Positions 9,361-51,139 of a DNA stretch of 64,000 bases are shown one piece after another (the stretch's first letter is position 1; each line of letters opens with the position of its first letter). The DNA is taken from contig DYDE01000005.1 in NCBI GenBank assembly GCA_020718065.1, forward strand, positions 1 to 64,000, read 5' to 3'. The notes below the pieces were generated by a model. That model saw only the letters and a program-made list of their open reading frames with translations. It was not told the origin of the DNA and did not search any database. This DNA comes from Marinifilum sp. GTDB lineage: Bacteria > Bacteroidota > Bacteroidia > Bacteroidales > CG2-30-32-10. A program made the position numbers and the translations under genes.

Positions 9361-10722
9361 CTATCCAGTCATTCCCATTGATGTACGTCCTTTTATTCTT
9401 CCTGTCTTTGTTAATCCGTCATAATGACGCATTAATAAATGACTTTCTATTTGTTGTAATGTATCTAAAACAACACCCACTAAAATAAGAAGTGATGTTC
9501 CGCCATAAAATTGTGCAAATTGGGAATTAACACCAAAGTGACGAACAAAAGCTGGCATAATCGCAACAAATGCTAAAAACATTGAACCAGGTAAAGTTAT
9601 TTTAGACATAATTGAGTCTATAAAATCCGCAGTCTTTTTTCCAGGTTTTACACCAGGTATAAAACCACCATTCTTTTTCATATCCTCAGCCATCTGATTT
9701 GGATTTATTGTAATAGCTGTATAAAAATAAGTAAATGCAATAATTAAAAATGCAAATGTAAAATTATACCAAAATCCGTTAAAATCAGAAAATGCAGCAG
9801 CGAAACCTCTTAAAGACTCTGATTGAGAGAATCCAACAATTGTTATAGGAACCAACATAATTGCCTGAGCAAATATAATTGGCATTACACCTGCAGCATT
9901 GACTTTTAAAGGAATGTATTGTCTAACACCACCATATTGCTTGTTACCAACTATTCTTTTGGCAAACTGTACCGGAATTTTTCGAGTACCTTGAACCAAT
10001 AAAATAGAAAGAACAATTACAAGTAATAGAACAACTAATTCGACCACAAATATAACCAAGCCTCCACCTTGTTCTTCCATTCTTGAGAAAAATTCAGCAA
10101 ACAATGCAAAAGGTAAACGTGCAATAATACCTATCATTATAATTAATGAAATTCCATTACCAATTCCTTTATCAGTTATTTTTTCGCCTAGCCACATTAC
10201 AAACATAGTTCCGGCTACAAGAATTGTAATAGATGAAATCCAGAAAAACAAGGGAGGTGATGCAATATTTGCATCAAAAGGATATATACCACCTGCAGGT
10301 ATCTGGGCAACAATATTACTAATATAACCAGGTGCTTGAGCTGCAGTTATAAGAACTGTTAAATATCTTGTAATTTGATTTATTTTCTTTCTTCCGCTTT
10401 CTCCTTCTTTCTGTAATTTTTGGAAATAAGGTATTGCCAAACCTAACAATTGAATAACAATTGAAGCAGATATGTAGGGCATAATACCCAATGCAAAAAT
10501 AGATGCATTAGAAAAAGCACCTCCAGAAAACATGTTTAGCAAACCAAGTAAACCATCTTTTGTTTGAGCATGAAGAGCCCCCAAAGCAGAAGGATTTACA
10601 CCAGGAAGTACCACATAAGAACCAACCCTATAAATAAGAATAATAGCAAGTGTGTATATTATCCTCTTTCTAAGGTCTTCTATTTTGTATATATTCTTTA
10701 TTGTTTGTATAAAACGTTTCAT
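9361..10722 (-). CDS. secY: Preprotein translocase subunit SecY
   Basis: 453 aa, multi-TM. GGAFSNASIFALGIMPYISASIVIQLL signature. Position after rplO. Confidence 0.97.
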   Translation of the reverse strand: MKRFIQTIKNIYKIEDLRKRIIYTLAIILIYRVGSYVVLPGVNPSALGALHAQTKDGLLGLLNMFSGGAFSNASIFALGIMPYISASIVIQLLGLAIPYFQKLQKEGESGRKKINQITRYLTVLITAAQAPGYISNIVAQIPAGGIYPFDANIASPPLFFWISSITILVAGTMFVMWLGEKITDKGIGNGISLIIMIGIIARLPFALFAEFFSRMEEQGGGLVIFVVELVVLLLVIVLSILLVQGTRKIPVQFAKRIVGNKQYGGVRQYIPLKVNAAGVMPIIFAQAIMLVPITIVGFSQSESLRGFAAAFSDFNGFWYNFTFAFLIIAFTYFYTAITINPNQMAEDMKKNGGFIPGVKPGKKTADFIDSIMSKITLPGSMFLAFVAIMPAFVRHFGVNSQFAQFYGGTSLLILVGVVLDTLQQIESHLLMRHYDGLTKTGRIKGRTSMGMTG

Positions 10723-11935: not shown

Positions 11936-12292
11936 TTAAAATTTTAATCCTCCTTCTCTAGCAGCATCTGCTAAAGATTTAACTCTACCATGATACAAAT
12001 ACCCGTTTCTATCAAAAACTACTGAATTAACACCAGCTTCTTTAGCACGTTCAGCTATTAACTTGCCCACTAATTTAGCCATTTCAGTTTTGTTTACAGT
12101 AGTAGAAACTACATCTTTAAGAATTGATGAAGCAGAAACCAAAGTTTTTCCATTTTTATCATCAATAATCTGTGCATAAATTTGCTTATTGCTTCTGAAA
12201 ACAGTTAATCTTGGAGCTTCTGAAGTTCCTTTAACTATTTTTCGGATTCTTTTTTTAATTCTTTCTCTTCTGAAATTTTTATTTATTGCCAT
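11936..12292 (-). CDS. rplR: 50S ribosomal protein L18
   Basis: [27 protein letters not shown]. Confidence 0.96.
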
Positions 12293-14500: not shown

Positions 14501-14869
14501 TTATAGCACTTCAGGTGCTAATGAAATAATTTTCATAAATTGTTTTTCTCTTAACTCTCTGGCAACAGGACCAAAAATACGGGTTCCTCTCATTTCATCA
14601 ACCGGAGTTAGAAGTACAACAGCATTGTCATCAAAACGGATATAAGAACCATCGTTTCTTCTAATTTCTTTTGATGTTCTGACAACTACCGCTTTTGTAA
14701 CTGTTCCCTTTTTTATATTACCAGAAGGTAATGCATTTTTAACGGTAACAATAATTTTATCGCCCACTGAAGCGTATCTTTTTCTTGTCCCGCCTAATAC
14801 TTTAATACAAAGTACTTCTTTTGCGCCACTATTATCGGCTACCATCAATCGTGATTCTTGTTGTATCAT
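14501..14869 (-). CDS. rplN: 50S ribosomal protein L14
   Basis: [18 protein letters not shown]... Confidence 0.97.
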
Positions 14870-34981: not shown

Positions 34982-35014
34982 TGCTTACTCTTTAATGGGT
35001 TTTCGGCATCCCCC
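34982..35014 (-). promoter_or_regulatory. Conserved 5'-leader motif (copy 1), 20 nt upstream of the ATG
   Basis: Sense strand GGGGATGCCGAAAACCCATTAAAGAGTAAGCA. About 25/28 aligned positions are identical to the element upstream of the peptide gene at 41328-41360. Confidence 0.5.
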
Positions 35015-35483
35015 TTTTTTAATTTATAATAAAATTGAAATGATAAAAATTATTAAAAAAACTAAATTAAATGAAGAGACAAATAGATACTTTATATAAT
35101 TTTATTTAAACTTTAAAAACACAAATAATTAACATGGCAATTGTTTTTGGCACTATACAGTAAACATCAACAATAAACACAAAACCCGATACAGCAAAAA
35201 TGCAGCTTATTTTAAATAATGGATTAGTAAAACCGGGATTTGATATCAACCCTCTTCGGCTATGAGGCTGTGGCCCTTTGGGTTGAGGCTGTGCCACCTC
35301 TCCACTATCCTGTTGACTTACCTGCACTCTTATTTTATTTTAAACCACAAGCTGGCGCTCTTTTTTAGTGATCGTTGCACAACTTCAGAATCAATTTTTT
35401 TTCTAGAAAGAGAACCCTGCTATGCGGCATGAAAATTATTAACAACATTGGTGGACAGCCAAAACCGAACGTAGTTAGAAAAA

Positions 35484-37142
35484 CTAATTGATCACAATTT
35501 TCTTATTTACCTTTTCATTTTGCATATATATAATTAAATTATAAACTCCTGCTTTTAATCCAGTAGTTTTAATAATTACTTTAGATTCATTGGTATTAGT
35601 GTCATAAACAACTTTCCCTAAAAGGTCACAAATACTGATATGAAGAATTGGAAAGCTTCCAGTAATAGTCAATAATCCTTCAGAAGGATTCGGAAATAAA
35701 GAGATATTGGCAGGTGATAACTTCTCAATCCCACCATTTCCTACTCTAATATATGATAATTTAATCTCAGAGCTGTTTCCCCAAGTGTTAATAATATTTA
35801 AGGTAACATCATAAGTACCAACAATATTATAAGTTACAATAGGATTGGAGGAATTGGATGTACCAGGTGTACCTCCTGGAAAAGTCCAGTTGTATGTGGA
35901 TGTTGAATGACCACCTGATATTATTGAAAAAAGAACCTGTTCTCCCTGGTCAACAGCTGTGTCATTGGCTGTAAAATTTGTTTTAGCAAGTTTACTTGTG
36001 AATTTATACATACCATCATTATTTGGATTATTGTTCCAACTACCAGCAAAAGCAACAGAATCATTTAACCATTTAATAGCAAGAAAATGTTTATTGTCTG
36101 TGGAAGGCATTTTTTGCCATGTATGTCCACCATCAAAGGAATAAGTTACTCCAGAATTAGTATGTTTAATATTATCCGAAGTTTCTTCTGAATGATTAAT
36201 ATTCTGTCTATCATTTATCATAGATGCATTGTGTCCTGTAGATACATATGTGTTGGGAGAACCAGGAATAGCTGCAAGTGCAAAAAGATTTATAGGGCCG
36301 GTACTGTTCACTAAAGTCCAAGTATTACCGCCATCCGAAGTTTCATGAACATTCATAGTAGTTGCTGTAGAAGTTGCAAAACCGATTAATCCATGATTTT
36401 CATCATGAAAGGCAATATTTTTAAACCAACAATTTGGGGGAATTGTAATTCCAGTTGGTTTTCTAATCCAATGGTATCCTCTGTCCGTTGAAATATACAA
36501 ACTAGATGTAGAAGTAATAAAACAAAACATGCTATCACCAACTGTTTCAAAAGCACGAACAAATCCAATTTCTCCGCCTGTTTGAATCGTATCATTAATA
36601 TTTATTTGAGGAATCCGATTCCAAGCAGTTCCACCGTTTGAAGTAGTATAAATTTCAAAATAACCATTTCTGGTATTCCCATAAAAAACACCTTCGTTTG
36701 CGTTCCAAAAATGCAAACCATTAACATATGTGGATGAATTATTTTCTACAAAAAATTGTTGAACCCATGTTGCTCCACCATCTGTAGTTTTATATATACC
36801 ACATACGCTATCCTGGGCTCCATAAGAATGGTAAATACCTGCCCAAGCAATATTTTCATCAAAAGCAGAAATATTTGCTATATCATATATAGCTGTTCCA
36901 GAAATGACCTGACCTACTGTCCATTTTGCTCCTCCATTGGTAGTTCGAGAAAACTCATTAGATATATAAGGAGCATTTAATCCATCTCTGGCACTAATCC
37001 ATGCAATATCTTTACTTACTACACTTATATAGAAAGCTCCAGTAGATTCATTTGGGAAACCTGATACCTGCATTAACCACTGCGCATCAGTAAAAGAGGA
37101 AAACACAAGTATTAATCCTGAAAGTAATAATAATTTTTTCAT
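35484..37142 (-). CDS. BNR/Asp-box (sortilin/Ycf48-like beta-propeller) protein with PKD domain and T9SS C-terminal sorting domain
   Basis: Signal peptide. Asp-box motifs TTNGGAKW, TTDGGATW, TSNGGTAW, STDRGYHW, TSDGGNTW, SFDGGHTW. PKD-like FTANDT...YNWTFPGGTP...GTYDVTL. C-terminus LFPNPSEGLLTI...GVYNLII. Confidence 0.75.
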   Translation of the reverse strand: MKKLLLLSGLILVFSSFTDAQWLMQVSGFPNESTGAFYISVVSKDIAWISARDGLNAPYISNEFSRTTNGGAKWTVGQVISGTAIYDIANISAFDENIAWAGIYHSYGAQDSVCGIYKTTDGGATWVQQFFVENNSSTYVNGLHFWNANEGVFYGNTRNGYFEIYTTSNGGTAWNRIPQININDTIQTGGEIGFVRAFETVGDSMFCFITSTSSLYISTDRGYHWIRKPTGITIPPNCWFKNIAFHDENHGLIGFATSTATTMNVHETSDGGNTWTLVNSTGPINLFALAAIPGSPNTYVSTGHNASMINDRQNINHSEETSDNIKHTNSGVTYSFDGGHTWQKMPSTDNKHFLAIKWLNDSVAFAGSWNNNPNNDGMYKFTSKLAKTNFTANDTAVDQGEQVLFSIISGGHSTSTYNWTFPGGTPGTSNSSNPIVTYNIVGTYDVTLNIINTWGNSSEIKLSYIRVGNGGIEKLSPANISLFPNPSEGLLTITGSFPILHISICDLLGKVVYDTNTNESKVIIKTTGLKAGVYNLIIYMQNEKVNKKIVIN

Positions 37143-37384
37143 AGTTTTACAGATTTAAAAGTTATTTATCAAATGTAATTTCAGTAATTTGATTTGAATC
37201 TTATAAATCTTCAAGAGGTATAAAAAATCGTTAAATGGTCAATTATTTAGATATACTATGAGATGTTAATAATAAATCAATCTAGTGCCATTTAGATTTT
37301 TTTAAGTTTATAATATGAATACAAAATATATAAAACTCTCAAAAAAAAATTATTTGTCTGAAATTGGATCAAAAAAGAGAAGAA

Positions 37385-37418
37385 AATAACCATTTAGCGA
37401 AAATAAAAACCGTTTAAA
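37385..37418 (+). promoter_or_regulatory. Two direct repeats (ATAACCATTTAG / AAAACCGTTTAAAG), candidate LytTR binding sites
   Basis: AACC cores at 37388-37391 and 37408-37411, spacing 20 bp. The 11-mer AACCGTTTAAA is identical to the minus-strand 41488-41478. Confidence 0.5.
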
Positions 37419-37450
37419 GTAAAAACGGAATTTGTATATTAAATAAGTAT

Positions 37451-37458
37451 TATTTTTG
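37451..37458 (+). promoter_or_regulatory. Candidate -7 box (TATTTTTG) with -33 TTTG at 37431-37434, for the kinase/regulator operon
   Basis: Matches TAnnTTTG. It lies 39 nt after the proximal AACC core and 49 nt before the ATG at 37508. Confidence 0.45.
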
Positions 37459-37507: not shown

Positions 37508-38584
37508 ATGTTAAGTGAAATTTATAATAAAAGGACAAATTTTTGGATTTACCAAATTCTGGGGTGGATTGGATTTTATATAATGGTAACAACGAGAGAA
37601 ACCTTACAGATAATACAGGATAAGTCGAATTTAAGCAACATAATTGAGGAATCTCTTTCATACATAATTTATGTCCTTTTGGGATTTTTATTTACTATAT
37701 TACTCAGATACATTTATCAATGGTTCTATCGAAAACAAAATCAAATAATCAAAACTACTGGTTTTATTATACTTATGACCTTTTTAGTTACCTTAATTCA
37801 TACAGTTTTGGTTAATTATATTTATTCTTTACTAATAAAACCGATTAACACACCTAATTTAATATTTCTTTTAATTCATATTATTTGGAATTTGCCTGTT
37901 TATTTTGGGTGGAGCATTCTATATTTCGGTATTAAATACTGGAATCAATCGGTTTTTGAGAAGGAAAAATCAGAAAAAGCAATTTTTTTAGCTCAAACCG
38001 CACAATTACAAATGCTGCGATATCAATTGAATCCACACTTTCTGTTCAATTCACTAAATTCTATTACCGCATTGATCGATGAAGATAAAAAGACTTCAAA
38101 GGATATGATAGCTGAACTGGCGGATTTTTTGCGTTACTCATTAATTAGCAAGAACTATACTGATATTCCTTTGGAAGAAGAACTTAAGGCAATTAGACTT
38201 TATTTTTCGATAGAAAAGAAAAGATTTGAAGAAAAGCTGGAAGTTGAATATGAGATCGCTCCTGAAGCAGAAAAGTTTCCAGTGTTAAGCTTGCTGTTGA
38301 ATCCAATTGTCGAAAATGCGATCAAATATGGTATGCTCACCAGCGTTTTGCCATTGAGAATTGCCATCATTGCTAAGATTGTAAATCAACATCTGATATT
38401 GCAAGTTACAAATACCGGTAAATGGATTGACTCTGTCAAAAATGATAATAATAATGGGACCAGAACTGGTTTAGAAAACATTAAATTACGACTTCTTAAC
38501 GCCTATTCTGACAAAGCATCATTTCATATTGGACAGATTGATGATAAAGTAATTGCTACAATTGAAATACATGGAAAATCATAA
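37508..38584 (+). CDS. Sensor histidine kinase, LytS/YehU type (multi-TM input domain)
   Basis: ~5 N-terminal TM helices. LQMLRYQLNPHFLFNSLNSI (His_kinase region) and N-box LLLNPIVENAIKYG. Confidence 0.85.
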   Translation: MLSEIYNKRTNFWIYQILGWIGFYIMVTTRETLQIIQDKSNLSNIIEESLSYIIYVLLGFLFTILLRYIYQWFYRKQNQIIKTTGFIILMTFLVTLIHTVLVNYIYSLLIKPINTPNLIFLLIHIIWNLPVYFGWSILYFGIKYWNQSVFEKEKSEKAIFLAQTAQLQMLRYQLNPHFLFNSLNSITALIDEDKKTSKDMIAELADFLRYSLISKNYTDIPLEEELKAIRLYFSIEKKRFEEKLEVEYEIAPEAEKFPVLSLLLNPIVENAIKYGMLTSVLPLRIAIIAKIVNQHLILQVTNTGKWIDSVKNDNNNGTRTGLENIKLRLLNAYSDKASFHIGQIDDKVIATIEIHGKS

Positions 38585-39299
38585 ATATACTGCCATCATA
38601 GTTGATGATGAGCGCTTAGCAAGAAACGCCTTAAAAACATTATTGGAAGAAATTGATGAAATTGAATTGACAGGAGAGGCTGATAGTGTGTCTAATGCCA
38701 TATCATTGATTGCTAAAGTGAAGCCAGATATTATCTTTCTTGACATTCAAATGCCTGGAGAATCTGGTTTTGATCTGATTGAAAAAATTTCAACAAATAT
38801 TAAAATCATATTTGTTACTGCTTTTGATGAATTTGCATTGAGGGCATTTGAAGTTAACGCCATTGATTACTTGTTGAAGCCTGTTTCTGTTATACGTTTA
38901 AAAACCAGTATAGCCAGGCTATTCGAAGAAAATAGTATAGATGAAACAGCAAAAAAAAAGTTAGTTGCAGGCGATCGCTTATTTCTTCTCTTTAATAACA
39001 ATTATCTTTTTCTTAAAATTGAAAATATTTTACACATTAGTTCTTCTGGAGATTATTCAGAGCTTCATCTGATTGATGGGAAAAAGGGTTTAACAAATAA
39101 ATCAATGCAAGAATGGGAAGCAAGGCTTCCTATAAATACCTTCTGCCGTATACACCGCTGTACTATCATTAATATGGATTACGTAGTAAAGGTGGATGAA
39201 TGGTTTAATAATGCTTTTCGAATTCATATGAAGGGAATAGAAGAACCTTTTATAATGAGCAGGCGATTTTCATCAGTAATCCGAAACAGGTTCAATTGA
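38571..39299 (+). CDS. LytTR-family response regulator
   Basis: REC domain (IIVDDERLARN...DIIFLDIQMPGESGFDL). C-terminal LytTR domain (ILHISSSGDYSELHL...FCRIHRCTIINMDYV). The start at 38571 overlaps the kinase stop. Confidence 0.88.
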   Translation: MENHKYTAIIVDDERLARNALKTLLEEIDEIELTGEADSVSNAISLIAKVKPDIIFLDIQMPGESGFDLIEKISTNIKIIFVTAFDEFALRAFEVNAIDYLLKPVSVIRLKTSIARLFEENSIDETAKKKLVAGDRLFLLFNNNYLFLKIENILHISSSGDYSELHLIDGKKGLTNKSMQEWEARLPINTFCRIHRCTIINMDYVVKVDEWFNNAFRIHMKGIEEPFIMSRRFSSVIRNRFN

Positions 39300-39376: not shown

Positions 39377-40867
39377 TTAAATAATATCATATATAAACGC
39401 AGGTGCTTTATTGCATCTGGGATCAGGAAAATCCCAATTTTCATCTCCATACACTTTTAACACATCAGCCCAACATTTGTTAGGATATTTATTACAACAT
39501 TCATCAAGTATTTCGCAATTTTTACATGCACTTTCTTCCCGAAAATCATCTTTTGTTAAATTGACCCATTTTAATGAAGCTGGAGAATTCCATACTTCCT
39601 CAATAGAATTGTTAAGAATATTTCCAATAATAAATTTTTGTTTCCAATACATTTGCTCGCAAATAGTAACATTGCCATCAGGAAGAACATACATATGCGA
39701 ACGATTTGCCGAACAAACAGCTCCCGGAAATGATTTACTTCCTTTTTCAGCTGTAAAATAACCTCGGTCCAAATGAGATTTATCTATATCAATCCTTAAT
39801 TTTTGCAATTTATTAAGTTCATCTATATTCTTAAGAGCTTCTTCACGTTCTTGTTTTTGAAGTTTTATCTTTTCAAAATCATTAGTACTATATAGGGATT
39901 TAAATGCAATTCTAACTTGCCAGCATTTAATTTTTTTTAATGATGATAGATAGTTGAGCATTTCCAATAATTCATTTTTATCAGCATTTAATCTAGTTAA
40001 AATAGAAATAACATGATATGAGATTCCATATTCATCCATCGTTTCTAATGTTTTCTTCATATTTGCAGCATAGTTTCCAGAGACACCAAGAATTTCATAC
40101 AGCTTTTGTGGAGAAAGAGAATCAAAGGAAAATTGAAAAGTTAGATTTGTAAATTGTGTCAATTTAATGATATCCTCTTTCTTAATAGGGATTTTGGTCG
40201 AAATAAATATTTTTTCATATCCATGTTTGTAAAGCTCTTTTAAAAGATCGTACCATCTGTCATAGAGGAAAAACTCTCCACCACCGATTTGTATTTCTTT
40301 TAATTTTATTTTTTTTGATTCTACAATTAAATCTATAATACGATCAAAAGGAATGGTGCACGAAAAATCATTATTTTTGTCAGCATAGCAATAAATACAA
40401 TTTGTTACACAGCGATTGGTTACCATAATGGTTATGGAAGAAGGGCATTTCATTAACCTGGCCGATTCAAAATCTAATTCTGAATAAGTAAAATCTTCGG
40501 GAGTATAAGTATAGTTGATTTTAAGCTGTTTTTTGTATTTAATGACGATCTGTTTAGGGAACCTAAAGGTAGCTCCATTATACTGCGTATATATGGTTTC
40601 TTTATTTTCGATAAAGGGATTAATAAGCGCAATAGTTTCTTTTTTATTTAAACTTAAAAATTCGGTTAAGTTCTCAACCGCCTTATCAATGGTTATAGGA
40701 TTAGAAAAAAAAGACAAGATCATTGCCTGGGCCGGATGAATAAAAGATAACCATTCTTTGTTTGAATTTTCACATTGCGATTCGGAATTAGCAATAATTA
40801 CACTTCTTTTAATATCATTTCTGAAGTTGTAGTCAGGATTAAGGATAAATTTTTCTGAGTTTGTCAT
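39377..40867 (-). CDS. Radical SAM/SPASM-domain peptide maturase with an N-terminal RRE-like domain
   Basis: CVTNCIYC is CX3CX2C. C-terminal auxiliary-cluster motifs are CSANRSHMYVLPDGNVTIC (CX12GX4C) and CKNCEILDECC (CX2CX5C). The ~130-aa N-terminal extension has a PqqD-like pattern (IHPAQAMILSFFSNPITIDKAVENLTEFL). Confidence 0.85.
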   Translation of the reverse strand: MTNSEKFILNPDYNFRNDIKRSVIIANSESQCENSNKEWLSFIHPAQAMILSFFSNPITIDKAVENLTEFLSLNKKETIALINPFIENKETIYTQYNGATFRFPKQIVIKYKKQLKINYTYTPEDFTYSELDFESARLMKCPSSITIMVTNRCVTNCIYCYADKNNDFSCTIPFDRIIDLIVESKKIKLKEIQIGGGEFFLYDRWYDLLKELYKHGYEKIFISTKIPIKKEDIIKLTQFTNLTFQFSFDSLSPQKLYEILGVSGNYAANMKKTLETMDEYGISYHVISILTRLNADKNELLEMLNYLSSLKKIKCWQVRIAFKSLYSTNDFEKIKLQKQEREEALKNIDELNKLQKLRIDIDKSHLDRGYFTAEKGSKSFPGAVCSANRSHMYVLPDGNVTICEQMYWKQKFIIGNILNNSIEEVWNSPASLKWVNLTKDDFREESACKNCEILDECCNKYPNKCWADVLKVYGDENWDFPDPRCNKAPAFIYDII

Positions 40868-41041: not shown

Positions 41042-41305
41042 TTAATACCACTGAATAATTCTATGATTTCGGGTACAATCACCTCCACCAGCACCCCACA
41101 TTCGTCCAGAACACACATTTCCTCCGCAAAAATTATTACTCAAGCCTCCGTCACAAGCTTGATGGGATATACATTCAGCTCCAGTGGTGCAGGTTCCAAC
41201 ATTATCACCGCACTCACCACCATTAATTTCATTTAATTGTTTGGCATTCATTAATTCGCCTAGATTTAACTTTTCATTAGTTAATTCACTTAATTTTTTT
41301 TTCAT
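41042..41305 (-). CDS. RiPP precursor peptide: double-glycine leader plus Cys/Gly-rich core
   Basis: The leader is MKKKLSELTNEKLNLGELMNAKQLNEINGG (30 aa). The core ECGDNVGTCTTGAECISHQACDGGLSNNFCGGNVCSGRMWGAGGGDCTRNHRIIQWY (57 aa) has 7 Cys and 12 Gly. The gene lies directly upstream of, and co-oriented with, the rSAM/SPASM gene. Confidence 0.75.
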   Translation of the reverse strand: MKKKLSELTNEKLNLGELMNAKQLNEINGGECGDNVGTCTTGAECISHQACDGGLSNNFCGGNVCSGRMWGAGGGDCTRNHRIIQWY

Positions 41306-41327: not shown

Positions 41328-41360
41328 TGCTTACTCTTTATAGGATTTTCAGCTTTCTCC
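41328..41360 (-). promoter_or_regulatory. Conserved 5'-leader motif (copy 2), 22 nt upstream of the ATG
   Basis: Sense strand GGAGAAAGCTGAAAATCCTATAAAGAGTAAGCA. See copy 1 at 34982-35014. Confidence 0.5.
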
Positions 41361-41416
41361 TATTGTTATTGCGCGCAAACAATATCTTTATAAATTCCAT
41401 AGCGTTTTTATTTTTA

Positions 41417-41424
41417 CAAAACTA
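41417..41424 (-). promoter_or_regulatory. Candidate -7 box (TAGTTTTG) for the precursor/maturase transcript
   Basis: Plus-strand caaaacta matches TAnnTTTG. It lies 39 nt downstream of the proximal AACC repeat core, with no good -33 element. Confidence 0.45.
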
Positions 41425-41457
41425 TTTAATAACTAAACTATAATAAAAGGGTTTTCT

Positions 41458-41516
41458 TCTAGTGGTTATTATATAGTTTTAAACGGTTACTTTTAAAGTT
41501 AAGCGGTTAATTATAA
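41458..41516 (-). promoter_or_regulatory. Three direct repeats (TTAACCGCTTAAC / GTAACCGTTTAAA / ATAACCACTAGAA), candidate LytTR binding sites
   Basis: On the minus strand the AACC cores end at 41505, 41485 and 41464, spacing 20 and 21 bp. Confidence 0.5.
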
Positions 41517-43009: not shown

Positions 43010-43074
43010 TGAGAATAAATAATTATTGGATTGAGGAACCCTCTGTGGAAACAGGGGGTTTTTTATTGGCCTCT

Positions 43075-43440
43075 CCACTTCGGAAGAACGGGGGATGGAA
43101 CGCTGATGACGCTGATTGATCTGATTTTCGTTGATATTTTCTCGCAAAGGCGCTAAGACGCATATCTTTAGAGTTGGAAGAACGGAGGATGGAACGTTGA
43201 TGACGCTGATTTATTATGATTATTATGATTTTGCCACCAAAGCTCAAAAACACCAAATTTCTCCAAACTTTATCTATAATTAAGAAATTGAACGCTGATG
43301 ACGCTGATTGAGCTGATTTTCGCTGATATTTTCTCGCAAAGGCGCTAAGACGCATATCTTTAGAGTCGGAAAAACGGAGGATGGAACGCTAATGACACCG
43401 ATTTATTATGATTATTATGATTTTGCAACCAAAGCACAGA
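43075..43440 (+). repeat. Interspersed-repeat cluster, same family and orientation as 30091-30425
   Basis: ggaacg.tgatgacgctgat modules at ~43097, 43190, 43291 and 43386. Around 43190-43270 the element reproduces ~85 nt of the 120-bp unit (..tgattttgccaccaaagc.caaaaacaccaaatttctccaaa). Confidence 0.8.
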
Positions 43441-43696
43441 AGCAAGATATCTAAACTAAAGTTTTAATGAAGGCATGAGATTGACCTCTCCCCTAGCCCT
43501 TATCCAATTGGAGAGGGGAATTGCATTTGTGGTGATTATTGAGTTTCTAGAAATAAAGAAAGAGATAGATGCTATCGTTTGCAGACGATAAATATACCTT
43601 GAAAGATTTTGTTTTTATAGACCTCAATATTACGGATGCTTTGGAATGAATCGGAGATTTATCGGAGATGAATTTGACTGGAATTGGAACAATTAA

Positions 43697-43908: not shown

Positions 43909-45384
43909 TTAATAATTTTTGAAGTTTTCAATTAGTTTGCCACCATAGATACCATCTTCATCTGGTTGTTTTTCATAATTGAGCACGTTATTGTAATCAC
44001 CTTTTTTGATTTTATTCATCCAACCTAAATCAGAAACTTCTCCATTAACATCAGAATTAATAAGTTCATAATTATTAGCGGCTTCATCACGACTACAGAA
44101 AACAAACTTTTTATTTGATTGACTTCCTACTCTATAGTAATGCCATATTTCGTAAGGGTATGATCCTTGATCAAAAGGAGCTTGCAGGATACTATTTGGT
44201 GGTCCATACTGAAGATATACTCTGCCCATATCGGTTAGATAACCTTTTTGATATCCTGTGGAGAAACTAGCATTTACTTTTAGAACTTCCATGTGGTAAG
44301 TATTCCATGCTTGTTCGGGATTGGTGTAATTTCTATCCATCCAAAATTTTAATATATATTTCTGAAGTTTATCGATACTAACATCCTTTTGTGCTACCAA
44401 AGCATCTGCAAGTGCAACTTCGATCTGGGTTGAAATAGGATAAAGACATCTAACATATTCAATAAGAGAATCGCGGTTAATAATTTTTTCAACAAAGCTG
44501 TTTTTTACAGCCAATAATTCAAAATCGATTTTATTAATTAATTTAGGATTGCTGCGTTGAAAAAACATTTTATTTAAAGAAATCACTTTATTTTCTTTGT
44601 CTCTTATTTCAATCACTAAATTATAATTACCAGAAGGCAACTTATCTATTGGAATCTCTTGAAGAATAACATTAACTGGTTTGGTTGTTTGTGTTTTAAC
44701 ATTCCCTAAATCCTGGATTTCGGCTTTACTTTCAAATGCTTCTATATAAGATTTGGTTATATATTTTTCATTTACTCCAAATAATTTCTCAGTATTGTAA
44801 ACTTCGGAATAAAATGTGATTTTATTTACAGATTCGGGGTAGAAATTAATAACCATAGGAGATAAATCGTAGCCACTTTTAGAAAAAACAGTTGGAGTGG
44901 TAGTTGCTTTATAGGTCTCTATGGGTTGAATACCTGAAAGTAAAATCTTATCTGTAGGAAAATCGATATAAATAGAATCTTTTCCCTTCATGGTTTTATT
45001 TAATGAGTTTTTATCAGTAATTTCAATTTCGAGCCCATACGCTCCATTGGGAAGGGCAAAACGATGCTGGTCAATAAAATTAGTAATGCTTAAGGTATCG
45101 TCTTGTTCGGGAATATTAACTATATACTTGTCAAAAGCTTTAATAGTTTTATTTTGCGAAAAGATTAAAGTAACTTCAATGTTAGAAGTAAATTTGTTTT
45201 TTTCGTTTTTAACAAAATGAATGCTTTTGCCAGCAATAGCAAGATAGGTTTCGATATACGGTCCATCTTTAGGAGAATAAAAAGAAACATACGAAATGTA
45301 TGTTTGAAGCTTTTTAGCAAAGGTTTGATTGGAAAAACCAGCTATAAAAAGCGACATAATAATAAATGTACGAATTGTTTTCAT
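43909..45384 (-). CDS. GWxTD-domain protein (variant GYLTD motif)
   Basis: Signal peptide. C-terminal KGYLTDMGRVYLQYGPPNSI...YPYEIWHYY matches the GWxTD...YG.P....E.W.Y domain pattern. Confidence 0.65.
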   Translation of the reverse strand: MKTIRTFIIMSLFIAGFSNQTFAKKLQTYISYVSFYSPKDGPYIETYLAIAGKSIHFVKNEKNKFTSNIEVTLIFSQNKTIKAFDKYIVNIPEQDDTLSITNFIDQHRFALPNGAYGLEIEITDKNSLNKTMKGKDSIYIDFPTDKILLSGIQPIETYKATTTPTVFSKSGYDLSPMVINFYPESVNKITFYSEVYNTEKLFGVNEKYITKSYIEAFESKAEIQDLGNVKTQTTKPVNVILQEIPIDKLPSGNYNLVIEIRDKENKVISLNKMFFQRSNPKLINKIDFELLAVKNSFVEKIINRDSLIEYVRCLYPISTQIEVALADALVAQKDVSIDKLQKYILKFWMDRNYTNPEQAWNTYHMEVLKVNASFSTGYQKGYLTDMGRVYLQYGPPNSILQAPFDQGSYPYEIWHYYRVGSQSNKKFVFCSRDEAANNYELINSDVNGEVSDLGWMNKIKKGDYNNVLNYEKQPDEDGIYGGKLIENFKNY

Positions 45385-45596
45385 GATTTTTAATTGTTAA
45401 GTTCAATAAAAAGTTTTTTTTCTAAAGATAAAAAAAAAAGGGATTGTTTTTTGAAAAATTTATAAACGGTATCCTAAATTAATTAAACGGTAAAATTGAA
45501 GCAAAATTAGTTAATTCAAATTTAATAAATGTAGTTTATTATGGTCAAAAAGCGAAGCTAAATAAAAGAATGATTTCTTAATTAATATTTTTTTTG

Positions 45597-45604
45597 TAGG
45601 TTTG
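45597..45604 (+). promoter_or_regulatory. Candidate -7 box (TAGGTTTG)
   Basis: Matches TAnnTTTG, 32 nt upstream of the ATG at 45637. Confidence 0.4.
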
Positions 45605-45636: not shown

Positions 45637-46719
45637 ATGATCAGATTCATTATAAAACGACTTATATATGGCTTAGCGGTTATGCTTGGAGTAGTTACCC
45701 TTGTTTTTATTTTATTTAATGTGCTTCCTGGTGATCCAGCAAGAATGATGCTGGGACAGAGAGCAGATATGGCATCAGTTGAGGCTATAAACAAAGATTT
45801 AGGGAGAGACAAACCATTATTGACACAATATTTTAATTACTTAAACGATTTATCTCCTATTTCTGTCCATAATGTGAATGATAACGAAAGTTATTGGTAT
45901 CTAAACCCTGAAAAATATAGCCCAAGTACTGTTCTTTTTAAAATATCGAAAGACAATGCAGTGGTTTTAAAATATCCATATATGCGCAGGTCTTACCAAT
46001 CTAAACGTAATGTTACAGAAATACTTGCAAGTGCTTTTCCAGCAACAGCTCTACTTGCAATAACAGCTATGATTTTTGCTTTTGTGGTGGGGACAGGGTT
46101 AGGAACCTTAGCAGCTATATATAAAAACAGCATTTTTGATAGAATATCATTGGTTATATCTGTATTAGGTATGTCGGTACCATCTTTTTTTGCAGCAATA
46201 ATTATAGCATGGGTATTTGCATTTGTTTTAGCAAATTATACAGGATTAAATATGTTTGGGAGTATGTACACCATTGATGATTTTGGAGATGGTGAATATA
46301 TAGATTTGAAAAATTTAATTCTTCCAGCCATCACATTAGGCATAAGGCCATTGGCTGTTATTGTTCAATTGATGCGAAGTTCTATGATAGATGTATTGTC
46401 GCAAGATTATATCAGGACAGCAAGAGCAAAAGGATTAAGTTTTTACAAAGTAATTACCAGACATGCGTTTAAAAACGCCCTGAATCCTGTAATAACAGCA
46501 GCATCAGGTTGGCTTGCATCTCTTTTAGCAGGAGCAGTATTTATAGAATATGTATTTGACTGGAAAGGAATTGGGGTAGCGATGGTTGAAGCATTAGAAA
46601 AATATGATTTTCCTGTAGTAATGGGAGGAGTATTGTTTATTTCAATTATTTTAATAGTAATAAACATCCTGGTTGATATTTCTTATGCATTGATAGACCC
46701 TAGAGTGAAGTTGCAATAA
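45637..46719 (+). CDS. ABC transporter permease (DppB/OppB-like), without partner genes in the window
   Basis: 360 aa, 6 TM. EAA-like loop DYIRTARAKGLSFYKVITRHAFKNAL. N-terminus MIRFIIKRLIYGLAVMLGV is typical of the family. Confidence 0.8.
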   Translation: MIRFIIKRLIYGLAVMLGVVTLVFILFNVLPGDPARMMLGQRADMASVEAINKDLGRDKPLLTQYFNYLNDLSPISVHNVNDNESYWYLNPEKYSPSTVLFKISKDNAVVLKYPYMRRSYQSKRNVTEILASAFPATALLAITAMIFAFVVGTGLGTLAAIYKNSIFDRISLVISVLGMSVPSFFAAIIIAWVFAFVLANYTGLNMFGSMYTIDDFGDGEYIDLKNLILPAITLGIRPLAVIVQLMRSSMIDVLSQDYIRTARAKGLSFYKVITRHAFKNALNPVITAASGWLASLLAGAVFIEYVFDWKGIGVAMVEALEKYDFPVVMGGVLFISIILIVINILVDISYALIDPRVKLQ

Positions 46720-46721
46720 TT

Positions 46722-46761
46722 GGTTGACAAGTAGACAAGTTAACTTGTCTACTTGTCAACC
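46722..46761. repeat. Perfect 40-bp palindrome built from four GACAAGT/ACTTGTC half-sites
   Basis: ggTTGACAAGTAGACAAGTT|AACTTGTCTACTTGTCAAcc. It begins 3 nt after the permease stop and ends 47 nt before a -7 box. Confidence 0.85.
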
Positions 46762-46807
46762 CACAAAGGAAGTATCCATTTTCAACTATCTAATTAATAA
46801 TAAAAAT

Positions 46808-46815
46808 TACTTTTG
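46808..46815 (+). promoter_or_regulatory. Candidate -7 box (TACTTTTG) for the membrane LytTR gene
   Basis: Matches TAnnTTTG, 10 nt upstream of the ATG at 46826, which implies a very short leader. Confidence 0.4.
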
Positions 46816-46825
46816 GTTTGAAATT

Positions 46826-47692
46826 ATGAAAATAAAGGAATATTTTAAACAGCCTTACCCTGCAAATGATAATGCATGGAAAAATATTGCATTTATAAGT
46901 GTTTTTATACCTGTTTTCCTTATTATGTTCCAACCTTTTGGAATGAGTTTATATGAAAATAAATACAAAGCATTAAAAATACTGGGTTATGGCGGTGTTA
47001 CATTTGTAGTTGCAGCAATCAATCAAATACTTCTACAGTATATTTTTAAAAAGACATTTTCAGAAAGTAATTGGACAATAGGAAAAAACATGCTCGGTAT
47101 GTTATATACTATTTTTACTATCGGTCTTGGCAATTATATTTATACCAGTCTGGTCTTTTCATTTCTTCAATTTGATATATCACAAATTGTTATCTTTCAA
47201 ATAGTAACATTGATGGTTGCTGTAATTCCTGTAGGTTTAATCACAACTTTGCGCTATAATACTTTATTAGCAAAAAATCTTAAAATAGCAAGAGAGATAA
47301 ACATACAATTACCAAATCAAAAATTGGTACCAGACATACGAATGATCCGTTTTTCTTCTGAAAATGAAAAAGATATTATTGAAATAGCTGCTAATGATTT
47401 TCTATATATTGAATCAAATGGTAATTATTTAGAAATAAATTACATTGAAGAAGGAAAACTAAAAACATCCTCAGTTCGTAGTACCCTAAAAAGAGCTGAA
47501 GCATCTATGTCTGTTTCCACATCTATTGTGAAATGTCATCGGGCATTTTATGTAAATATCAATAAAATTAAAAAGGTTAATGGAAATTCCCAAGGTTATA
47601 AACTTTGTATAGAACATACTGAAAAAGAAATTCCGGTTGCCAGAAACTATTCCAAAACTATTAAGGAATTATTGAGCCCATCTTCAAAATAA
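46826..47692 (+). CDS. Membrane-anchored LytTR-domain DNA-binding protein (one-component)
   Basis: ~4-5 TM helices then a LytTR domain (FLYIESNGNYLEINYIEEGK...IVKCHRAFYVNINKIKKV). There is no receiver domain. The track's TTG start at 46724 lies inside the palindrome, so the ATG at 46826 is preferred. Confidence 0.75.
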   Translation: MKIKEYFKQPYPANDNAWKNIAFISVFIPVFLIMFQPFGMSLYENKYKALKILGYGGVTFVVAAINQILLQYIFKKTFSESNWTIGKNMLGMLYTIFTIGLGNYIYTSLVFSFLQFDISQIVIFQIVTLMVAVIPVGLITTLRYNTLLAKNLKIAREINIQLPNQKLVPDIRMIRFSSENEKDIIEIAANDFLYIESNGNYLEINYIEEGKLKTSSVRSTLKRAEASMSVSTSIVKCHRAFYVNINKIKKVNGNSQGYKLCIEHTEKEIPVARNYSKTIKELLSPSSK

Positions 47693-48003: not shown

Positions 48004-49095
48004 ATGAAAAAAACAATCAACATGATCATTTTGCTCGTCTTATTAGGCTTGAGTAATAATTTAAATTCACAAACGATCACTTCTGTTGCCAATGGTAATT
48101 GGACAAATCCAGCAACCTGGGGTGGAGCAATTCCACAACCTGGAAGTAATATTGTTATTAATCATACTGTAACGTTAAATACAGATTGGGGTTATACAAC
48201 TGGATCTATAACAATTAATGCTTCTGGTTCTTTAAACGGAAATTCTAGTATGAGGGGAATAGCTATAGGTAATAAACTAACAGTTTATGGAATATTCAAT
48301 GTGGCAAGAGTGATTTTATATTCGGGAAGTATAACCAATAGTGGCACTATCCAGATTGATAGTCTGATGAATACAACAAAATTAACAAATTTGAGTGGTG
48401 CAACAATAAACGCTTCACAATTTCAAATAGGTAGTGGTGGAACATTTAATAACTATGGTTCACTTGTATCATCATATATTGTCAATTTAGATTCATTAAA
48501 AAACAATGGAATGATATCAACAAATAATCTTATAAATTCTAAAACTTTTATCAACTCTACAACAGGTTTGATAAACCTTAACAATAATTTTCTTAACACT
48601 GATTCTCTGACTAGTCCTGGAGTTTTTACTAATAATGGAAGAGTTGTTGTAAATAATAACTGGTGTAATAAAGATGAGGTAAATGGAATTGGAAAGTTTT
48701 GTGTTCAAAATAACAGCAGTAATTCAGGTACGATGTCTGGAACTTTTGATTTTTGCGATTTAACCGGAGGTAGTATAGACATAAATACAGGAAATATCGC
48801 AGGAACCATTACCTATTGTTTATATTCTTGCGTTACTGGTATTAATGAAAACACAAACAATATTATTATCAATGTTTATCCAAACCCATGTAATGGAATA
48901 TTCTCGATTCTTGCTAGAAATAGTGCATCAACTTTAAATTTAGAAATATTTAATATGCTTGGAGAAAGCATTTATACAAGTCAGTTAACAGATAAAATTG
49001 ACATTGATCTAAGCAAACATACCAAAGGTTTATATTTGATTCAAATAAAAAGTGAAAAAGGGATTATAAATACTGGCAAAATTATTATTGAATAA
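48004..49095 (+). CDS. T9SS-sorted secreted repeat protein (adhesin-like)
   Basis: Signal peptide. Repetitive N/S/T/G-rich beta-strand-like segments. C-terminus VYPNPCNGIFSI...GLYLIQIKS. Confidence 0.65.
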   Translation: MKKTINMIILLVLLGLSNNLNSQTITSVANGNWTNPATWGGAIPQPGSNIVINHTVTLNTDWGYTTGSITINASGSLNGNSSMRGIAIGNKLTVYGIFNVARVILYSGSITNSGTIQIDSLMNTTKLTNLSGATINASQFQIGSGGTFNNYGSLVSSYIVNLDSLKNNGMISTNNLINSKTFINSTTGLINLNNNFLNTDSLTSPGVFTNNGRVVVNNNWCNKDEVNGIGKFCVQNNSSNSGTMSGTFDFCDLTGGSIDINTGNIAGTITYCLYSCVTGINENTNNIIINVYPNPCNGIFSILARNSASTLNLEIFNMLGESIYTSQLTDKIDIDLSKHTKGLYLIQIKSEKGIINTGKIIIE

Positions 49096-50377: not shown

Positions 50378-51139
50378 ATGTATAAAATGAGTGTTCGCTT
50401 CTTATACATCAAAGCTGAAATTAAGAAAGTCAAGTGGTTAAATATATTCATCTTTTATCTGCTTGCTTTTCTAATTGCAGCACCCTTTAATTCTGGATTT
50501 TTAGTGGAAGCATACCGAAACATAACTAAAAACTATTTAATTAGTAGTTGGGGTTATTTGCCTGCAGGTTTTGGGACTTTAGTTGGAACTTTAATTGTTT
50601 TATGGCTTGACAAAAAACATGAGAAAACTATTACTTTACTGGGAAATGCTCCATTCAAAAATATTACCATTGCAATAATTCCATTGATTGTGTTTACTAT
50701 AATCGGTTTAAAAAACGAATTACTTAAAAACGAACACTATTATGCGTTTATTTTTATGGTAATTAATTTAGCTTATGCTCTTGCAGAAGAGATCGGTTGG
50801 CGAGGTTATTTACAAGATGCTTTAAGACCAATTTCTTCAAACTTTCGTTATATATTTATAGGAATATTTTGGTGGGTATGGCATTTTCGTTTTTGTTCCA
50901 CCTTTGAAATAACACTTTTTCCTGTAATATGCATAACAAGTGCTTTTATATTAGGGAAATTTGTTGAACAAACAAAATCGTCCTTTACTGTTGCAGGTTT
51001 ACATTCTTTGATAATAATACTGACGAACACAGGAAAATTAAGTATTTCAAAAATAACTGGTGCATTTATAACAATTCTTATTTGGTTTGCTATTGGATAT
51101 TTTTTCAAATTGAACGAAAATAAAAAACCTGCTAAATAA
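50378..51139 (+). CDS. CPBP-family intramembrane metalloprotease (CAAX protease / Abi)
   Basis: Multi-TM protein. Motif 1 is AEEIGWRGYLQ (EExxxR). FWWVWHF and GLHSLIII provide the conserved His residues. Confidence 0.75.
   Translation: MYKMSVRFLYIKAEIKKVKWLNIFIFYLLAFLIAAPFNSGFLVEAYRNITKNYLISSWGYLPAGFGTLVGTLIVLWLDKKHEKTITLLGNAPFKNITIAIIPLIVFTIIGLKNELLKNEHYYAFIFMVINLAYALAEEIGWRGYLQDALRPISSNFRYIFIGIFWWVWHFRFCSTFEITLFPVICITSAFILGKFVEQTKSSFTVAGLHSLIIILTNTGKLSISKITGAFITILIWFAIGYFFKLNENKKPAK

Follow-up and report, generated by a model that had tools for sequence, protein, structure and literature searches.

What protein reads the short direct repeats that lie upstream of a sensor kinase gene in a Marinifilum genome, and which genes does it control through them? 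The question arises from a 64,000-nucleotide stretch of Marinifilum sp. DNA (assembly GCA_020718065.1, contig DYDE01000005.1, positions 1 to 64,000; hereafter the window, meaning that stretch at its full length). A sequence-only reading of it had noticed AACC repeats before a kinase/regulator operon and again before a peptide operon 4 kb away, and had proposed that one regulator controls both promoters, including its own by positive autoregulation. All the computational tests that we ran, on protein domains, motif statistics, orthologous loci and related peptide cassettes that do not adjoin the regulator, support this proposal. The repeats are very probably docking sites of the neighbouring LytTR response regulator. 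We consider it likely that this regulator binds them and thereby activates its own operon, a peptide/radical SAM operon and a gene for a 552-amino-acid protein carrying a type IX secretion system (T9SS) sorting domain, and possibly also a GWxTD-domain gene. Binding by this particular regulator, its activating sign and transcription starts at the boxes predicted below are what we infer from the arrangement of the sites.

The operon that gives the locus its regulatory character begins with a histidine kinase gene of the PF06580 (LytS/YehU) type (37508-38584, +), followed by a response regulator gene (38571-39299, +). The kinase (358 amino acids) has a membrane sensor N-terminus and, besides His_kinase (E=3.9e-26), no Pfam match; its H-box NPHFLFN and N-box ENAIKYG are intact in the translation. 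The regulator, which is the proposed repeat binder, joins a receiver domain (REC; Response_reg, 1.9e-22), with its receiver aspartate in the context FLDIQMP, to a LytTR DNA-binding domain (PF04397; 9e-20), and its top NCBIfam models are BtsR and LytR, each scoring under cut-off. Two-component systems of the PF06580/LytTR type are abundant in Bacteroidota.

Upstream of the kinase gene, a distal repeat AACCATTTAGCG (37388-37399, +) and a proximal repeat AACCGTTTAAAG (37408-37419, +) carry AACC cores whose last bases, 37391 and 37411, are 20 bp apart, just as the sequence-only reading had placed them. The two sequence identities that it had drawn between the promoters are also borne out. The 11-mer AACCGTTTAAA is common to 37408-37418 (+) and 41488-41478 (-), where it forms the middle of the three sites of the peptide promoter, and has no further exact copy in the window; for a given 11-mer of this composition, we estimate about 0.09 chance copies in 128 kb. 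ATAACCA is shared by the distal site of the kinase promoter and the proximal one of the peptide promoter. Previous studies have found that the main sigma factor of Bacteroidota recognizes TAnnTTTG at -7 and TTTG near -33 (PMC2483708, PMC7366714), and a scan for sigma-70 promoters is uninformative for this phylum. The -7 box of the kinase/regulator operon, TATTTTTG (37451-37458, +), and that of the peptide operon, TAGTTTTG (41417-41424, -), each start 39 nt past the proximal AACC, which confirms the equal phasing claimed for the two promoters. A TTTG proposed as the -33 element of the kinase promoter is indeed present at 37431-37434 (+), but its role is doubtful, as it lies 16 nt from the -7 box, compared with the 19 nt that separate the -33 and -7 elements in Bacteroides promoters (PMC6193735 Table 3).

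The peptide operon encodes an 87-amino-acid, Cys-rich precursor peptide whose leader is of the GG type (…LNEINGG followed by E…; 41042-41305, -), which had no family match in Pfam or NCBIfam and precedes a radical SAM/SPASM peptide maturase gene (39377-40867, -; Radical_SAM 3e-15, SPASM 4.5e-14) that is convergent with the kinase/regulator genes. On the minus strand upstream of the precursor gene lie a distal site AACCGCTTAACT (41497-41508), a second site AACCGTTTAAAA 20 bp from it (41477-41488) and, after a further 21 bp, a proximal site AACCACTAGAAG (41456-41467, with its AACC core at 41467-41464). The predicted regulon exceeds these two promoters. A third, which has the same architecture, belongs to the 552-amino-acid gene divergent from the kinase gene (35484-37142, -), a predicted regulon member that encodes a secreted protein with Sortilin/BNR and PKD domains and a T9SS C-terminal sorting domain; here, a distal repeat GACCATTTAACG (37229-37240, -) and a proximal repeat TACCTCTTGAAG (37209-37220, -), 20 bp apart, precede a -7 box TACATTTG (37170-37177, -) that again starts 39 nt past the proximal core. 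At all three promoters, the phased box is the sole TAnnTTTG on its intergenic strand. The gene of the GWxTD-domain protein (43909-45384, -), a possible regulon member, appears to have a looser version, with the candidate repeats TACCGTTTAATT and TACCGTTTATAA placed 21 bp apart upstream of it (45460-45492, -) and an imperfect box, TATCTTTA, 37 nt downstream of them; binder and sign are ambiguous at this promoter, where perfect TAnnTTTG boxes, at 45524 and 45509 (-), lie upstream of the repeats.

Over the four promoters, the motif can be written as a direct repeat of 12 bp, (A)ACC(G/A)(T/C)TT(A/G)A(A/C)G, with a period of 20 or 21 bp at every one of them; nine sites in the window share (A)ACC(G/A)(T/C)TT. 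LytTR regulators are known to bind imperfect direct or inverted repeats of 9-11 nt with spacers of 11-13 nt, the exact spacing being important (PMC4847170, PMC4064291), and in many species the repeats are typically placed some 10 bp before the -35 element (PMC6193735). The locus has the features expected of such an operator, namely at least two imperfect direct repeats with a period of about 20-22 bp, a fixed upstream position and a LytTR protein encoded nearby. If the repeat is counted as 9 bp long, the distance from proximal core to TAnnTTTG (39 nt in the window, 38 nt in orthologs) leaves about 10 bp between the repeat and the canonical -33 position; the 39-nt offset from the ACC core is then 6 + 10 + 4 + 19, where 19 nt is the -33/-7 spacing tabulated for B. 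thetaiotaomicron (PMC6193735).

This architecture is far too frequent in the window for its base composition. The pattern ACC-N17-18-ACC-N38-39-TAnnTTT[GA] occurs three times, always within the locus, against 0.1 occurrences expected from a first-order Markov simulation in which the maximum over 200 runs was 2; the full architecture thus stands about 30-fold over expectation. In 1.115 Mb of control loci, a single ACC..T site with a box at 38-39 nt was found 15 times, and a second ACC 20-21 bp upstream accompanied none of the 15.

Conservation gives a second line of evidence. The nearest kinases among 5.8 billion proteins are 53-59% identical to the one in the window, and four independent loci that encode such kinases (L083, L084/L085, L087 and L088) carry, upstream of the kinase gene, a pair of AACC repeats 20 bp apart, followed 38 nt past the proximal core by TACTTTTG or TATTTTTG as the -7 box. 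The sequence-only reading had suggested phylogenetic footprinting as a check, and absence of the repeats from orthologous loci as a sign that it was wrong; both repeats and the box are kept in all four. Regulator identity is 70-74% in L083, L084 and L087, the three loci that it covers, as the contig of L088 ends within the regulator gene. When these four upstream regions are aligned with that of the window, the invariant columns approximate to three blocks, AACC..T...CG (the AACC, T and CG columns of the distal repeat), AACC..TT...G.AAA and TA.TA.TTTTGA, with a single 1-nt indel between proximal repeat and box, while the remainder has diverged. The proximal repeat is kept as AACCG[TC]TT[AG]AAG in L083, L084 and L087. 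Further sites occur around these operons: L083 and L084 have a single site with 39-40 nt phasing at a divergent hydrolase promoter, and L084 has a repeat pair before a T9SS gene downstream of the regulator. A search of the Joint Genome Institute (JGI) metagenome collection with the strict full-architecture pattern returned two matches, each directly upstream of an orthologous kinase/regulator operon, and the two sequences are those of L087 and L084.

Beyond this close set, the architecture fades with divergence, and motif conservation tracks the identity of the response regulator. One locus with a 49% identical kinase (L164) has no repeats, its kinase gene following another gene after a gap of 33 bp. 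We also collected 80 loci with regulator paralogs of at most 65% identity, the closest of which (L003, 65%) begins within the kinase gene and so does not include its promoter. In 59 of the 80, a kinase open reading frame could be located, and almost all of these lack an ACC pair before the kinase, a weak pair being present only in L032 and L033. Scanning species-representative genomes for AACCRYTT-N12-AACCRYTTRAAG gave 70 matches, approximately the number expected by chance, and tblastn placed none of them immediately before a kinase/regulator operon. In L012, a more distant kinase/LytTR pair (regulator 46% identical) has ACC(A/G)CTTATC repeat pairs, 20 bp apart, at 12118-12150 and 14658-14690 (+). 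They are found before two downstream genes, one encoding a secreted protein of 205 amino acids and the other a zinc-type dehydrogenase; at one of the pairs, there is a TATCTTTG box at a distance of 38 nt. Other regulators of this family may therefore use the same architecture.

A third line of evidence comes from relatives of the peptide cassette. Radical SAM enzymes 63-78% identical to that of the window occur in cassettes with nearly the same leader peptide and 5' leader; in two of these, L161 and L001, the precursor leader peptide is nearly identical and the 5' leader is conserved. TA-rich, imperfect -7-like sequences (TATTTTTA in L161B) align with the position of the window's -7 box in L161 and L001. 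The related peptide/radical SAM cassettes L001, L002, L160 and L161, which do not adjoin this response regulator, have no ACC repeats. Two of them (L001, with its peptide at 9612-9848, and L160) lie beside a divergent two-component system of the NtrC type (a sigma-54 activator) and a MacB/FtsX permease, while L002 and L161 have no neighbouring regulator. L002 (8260-13479) comprises two radical SAM genes, at least three CxxxC-rich precursor genes and, as judged by sequence features, an ATP-binding cassette (ABC) exporter of the C39 type. Since related cassettes in other regulatory contexts lack the ACC repeats, these would go together with the LytTR regulator rather than with the cassette. The cassette of the window was apparently brought into the regulon through the addition of sites upstream of a core promoter that is itself conserved.

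The conserved 5' leader of the peptide transcript has features of its own. It contains a DUF805b RNA motif (41328-41362, -), scoring 40.3 bits against a gathering score of 35.6; DUF805b is listed in Rfam as a cis-regulatory motif of unknown function (RF02914). Both the window and L161 have a hairpin TATTGTT..AACAATA just upstream of the motif, and one of the L161 copies shows a G-U change. DUF805b is found as well in the peptide leader of L001 (9556-9590) and at 3934-3972 of L002, and the window has a second copy (34982-35016, -) upstream of a gene for a 387-amino-acid secreted protein with Ig repeats.

We hypothesize that the PF06580 kinase (37508-38584) would respond to a signal through its membrane sensor and would then phosphorylate the regulator. 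The phosphorylated regulator might bind cooperatively, with tandem protomers on the direct repeats, which at a spacing of 20-21 bp would lie on one face of the helix. As the proximal repeat would end about 10 bp upstream of the expected canonical -33 position, the bound regulator could bring RNA polymerase to promoters whose -33 TTTG is missing or wrongly spaced. The predicted result is positive feedback on the operon itself, together with co-induction of the peptide/radical SAM operon, with its three sites, and of the T9SS cargo gene.

Several observations weigh against so inclusive a scheme. One locus with a 53% identical kinase and a 62% identical regulator (L089) has no repeats upstream of the kinase, and neither does a locus with a 58% identical kinase (L086) in the 160 bp of its upstream region, which is itself incomplete. 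No ortholog of the peptide promoter with repeats was found, and co-regulation of the peptide rests on a single genome. The two remaining points bear on specific alternatives: a second LytTR-domain protein encoded 5 kb away (46724-47692) could use similar sites, and the GWxTD promoter, with 37-nt phasing to an imperfect box and perfect boxes upstream of the repeats, would fit repression. The latter is the argument for a regulator that binds the repeats but represses, in a negative autoregulation or a mixed regulon, because a protein on the GWxTD repeats would sit just downstream of a start directed by the perfect boxes at 45524 and 45509 (-). At the kinase, peptide and 552-amino-acid promoters, however, the repeats precede the sole -7 box by a constant 38-39 nt, which is the activating position for LytTR proteins (PMC6193735), and these promoters have no well-spaced -33 element, as is typical of activator-dependent promoters; we therefore regard repression as distinctly unlikely. 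A membrane-tethered LytTR protein of 322 amino acids, the product of 46724-47692, could be the binder in place of the response regulator. Its gene is in the window, beside the GWxTD repeats, and direct repeats upstream of -33/-7 promoters are the proposed sites of Bacteroides membrane-type LytTR proteins (PMC6193735). Yet L083, L084 and L087 keep the kinase-promoter repeats with no other LytTR gene within 6-8 kb in their gene tables, repeat conservation follows the identity of the response regulator, and the membrane-type sites of B. thetaiotaomicron have another sequence and a 22-bp period (PMC6193735 Table 3), all of which makes this very unlikely.

Least probable, to the point of being remote, is that the repeats are a chance likeness in AT-rich intergenic DNA (the window has 31.7% G+C), or that what matters is a terminator or inverted-repeat operator formed by the hairpin CCGTTT-N7-AAACGG (37410-37428). 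In favour of this reading, matches to AACCGTTTAAA with two mismatches are at chance level (60 found, 51 expected), and the segment 37410-37428 is flagged as terminator-like on both strands. Against this stand the roughly 30-fold excess of the full architecture, its absence from the 1.1 Mb of controls and the fact that, besides the -7 box, the repeats alone are conserved in orthologs. The inverted repeat, which overlaps the proximal kinase site, is not conserved in L083, L084, L087 or L088, and no gene ends there on either strand, which led us to discard it as a terminator or operator. Activation by the neighbouring response regulator is thus the reading that we retain.

A more ambitious version of the scheme would make the radical-SAM-modified, GG-leader peptide the signal for the PF06580 kinase, closing an autoinduction (quorum-sensing) loop in Bacteroidota that resembles agr or com and is based on a peptide that is made by the ribosome and modified after translation (RiPP). 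In its favour, the peptide promoter holds the most sites, three. Moreover, the kinase sensor domain is only 32-44% identical to that of orthologs without the peptide, compared with about 70% for the catalytic half. On the other side, the gene tables of the orthologous kinase/regulator loci L083, L084 and L087 contain no peptide gene, which counts against the peptide as signal, and so does the lack of a nearby exporter: no ABC exporter with a C39 peptidase for the GG leader was found among the window open reading frames that were scanned, which are part of the total. The peptide and kinase/regulator units share repeats yet form separate operons, 4 kb apart. We consider the signal role unlikely on this balance; if true, it would amount to an agr/com-like circuit built on a different kinase family. 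Since the related cassettes L001 and L160 adjoin another type of two-component system, regulated or signal-linked production of this peptide family may nevertheless be common.

The surroundings of the locus are of Bacteroidota type, with several T9SS sorting domains in addition to the GWxTD protein, and the nearest homologs come from metagenome-assembled genomes of Bacteroidales/Bacteroidota. Between the precursor-peptide and GWxTD genes lies a gene for a 315-amino-acid CarboxypepD_reg protein. The long intergenic region between the 315-amino-acid and GWxTD genes, through which spurious open reading frames run, contains a 158-nt direct repeat in two copies with 92% identity, 192 bp apart (43095-43444, +), and beside it a weak, sub-threshold Rfam match to BSnc120 (43016-43087). 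Divergent from the GWxTD gene is a pair (45637-47692, +) consisting of an ABC permease gene and the gene of the 322-amino-acid protein discussed above, which has a membrane region at its N-terminus and a LytTR domain at its C-terminus, the 'LRS-like' (LytTR regulatory system-like) Bacteroides type; the pair has its own TAnnTTTG box at 45597. In L001 and L160, a membrane-type LytTR protein 24% identical to this one is encoded about 4-5 kb from the peptide cassette. A few kilobases past the locus, genes for a T9SS-tailed protein (48004-49095, +) and a CAAX/Rce1-like intramembrane protease (50378-51139, +) follow, with no ACC repeat architecture seen before either. CAAX/Rce1-like proteases are often tied to bacteriocin immunity or maturation.

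We found no PF06580/LytTR system of Bacteroidota with a defined operator or regulon in the literature. The operator at this locus is precise and conserved, its phasing to the phylum-specific -7 box is fixed and the predicted regulon is small; natural controls are at hand in related genomes where the same peptide cassette is wired to other regulators. The locus would be a convenient place to study the way in which LytTR activators work together with the Bacteroidota sigma factor, and likewise the control of RiPP production in the phylum.

Among the closest known systems is the pyruvate-sensing BtsS/BtsR (YehU/YehT) of E. coli, which likewise pairs a LytS-family PF06580 kinase with a REC-LytTR regulator and uses the core ACC(G/A)(C/T)T(C/T)A. 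The yjiY oligonucleotide bound by YehT/BtsR contains GCCGCTCA, ACCGCTTA and ACCACTCA at steps of 20 and 21 bp (PMC4847170), with a repeat spacer of 13 bp (PMC4222967). The peptide promoter described here resembles that probe closely, reading ACCGCTTA, ACCGTTTA and ACCACTAG, again at steps of 20 and 21 bp; when compared with the BtsR operator ACC(G/A)CT(C/T)A, peptide site 1 contains ACCGCTTA exactly, and the other window sites differ at 1-3 positions with an equal period. The regulator is nevertheless not a BtsR equivalog (NF008677), scoring 147.7 bits against a cut-off of 246, although BtsR is its best-scoring model. The systems also differ in their targets. No CstA-family transporter gene (yjiY/btsT), the target of BtsR, was present among the neighbour genes scanned, and the predicted targets here are the peptide/radical SAM operon and the T9SS cargo gene; in addition, the repeats precede the operon of the regulator itself, and the promoter is of the Bacteroidota -33/-7 type. 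BtsS is larger than the 358-amino-acid kinase and has extra sensor domains.

In Streptococcus mutans, the repeats of HdrR (ACCTCTTAG-12-ACCACTTAA) and BrsR (ACCACTTAT-12-ACCGCTTAT) have been described, and positive autoregulation through them was demonstrated for HdrR with electrophoretic mobility shift assays and reporters, while for BrsR and other LRS operons it was inferred from analogous repeats (PMC6193735). As at the present locus, HdrRM and BrsRM have ACCxCTTAx-12 bp-ACCxCTTAx repeats about 10 bp upstream of the -35 element, and bacteriocin genes are co-regulated there (PMC6193735). Those regulators, however, have no receiver domain and are restrained by a membrane inhibitor, whereas here a receiver domain accompanies a co-transcribed kinase. 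The 'LRS-like' operons of B. thetaiotaomicron and B. ovatus resemble the locus in placing LytTR direct repeats at a fixed distance upstream of a Bacteroides-type promoter, in the order repeat, 11 bp, 4-nt -33 element, 19 bp and TATCTTTG (PMC6193735 Table 3); they differ in their 11-bp repeats of other sequence, 11-bp spacers and 22-bp period, and in a membrane-tethered regulator without a receiver domain, and the function of these operons is predicted as well. The Gram-positive peptide-pheromone circuits with three components, agr (AgrCA), com (ComDE) and pln (PlnBCD), share a LytTR response regulator, repeats with a period of about 21 bp before both regulatory and GG-leader or modified-peptide operons, and the logic of positive feedback (PMC4847170, PMC4064291). 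What sets the Marinifilum locus apart from them is the PF06580 kinase family, a peptide gene that lies outside the regulatory operon, 4 kb away, and a radical SAM/SPASM maturase. More generally, a design that combines LytTR direct repeats, positive feedback and joint control of a peptide operon is textbook knowledge from Gram-positive bacteria and E. coli, and its appearance here is not surprising.

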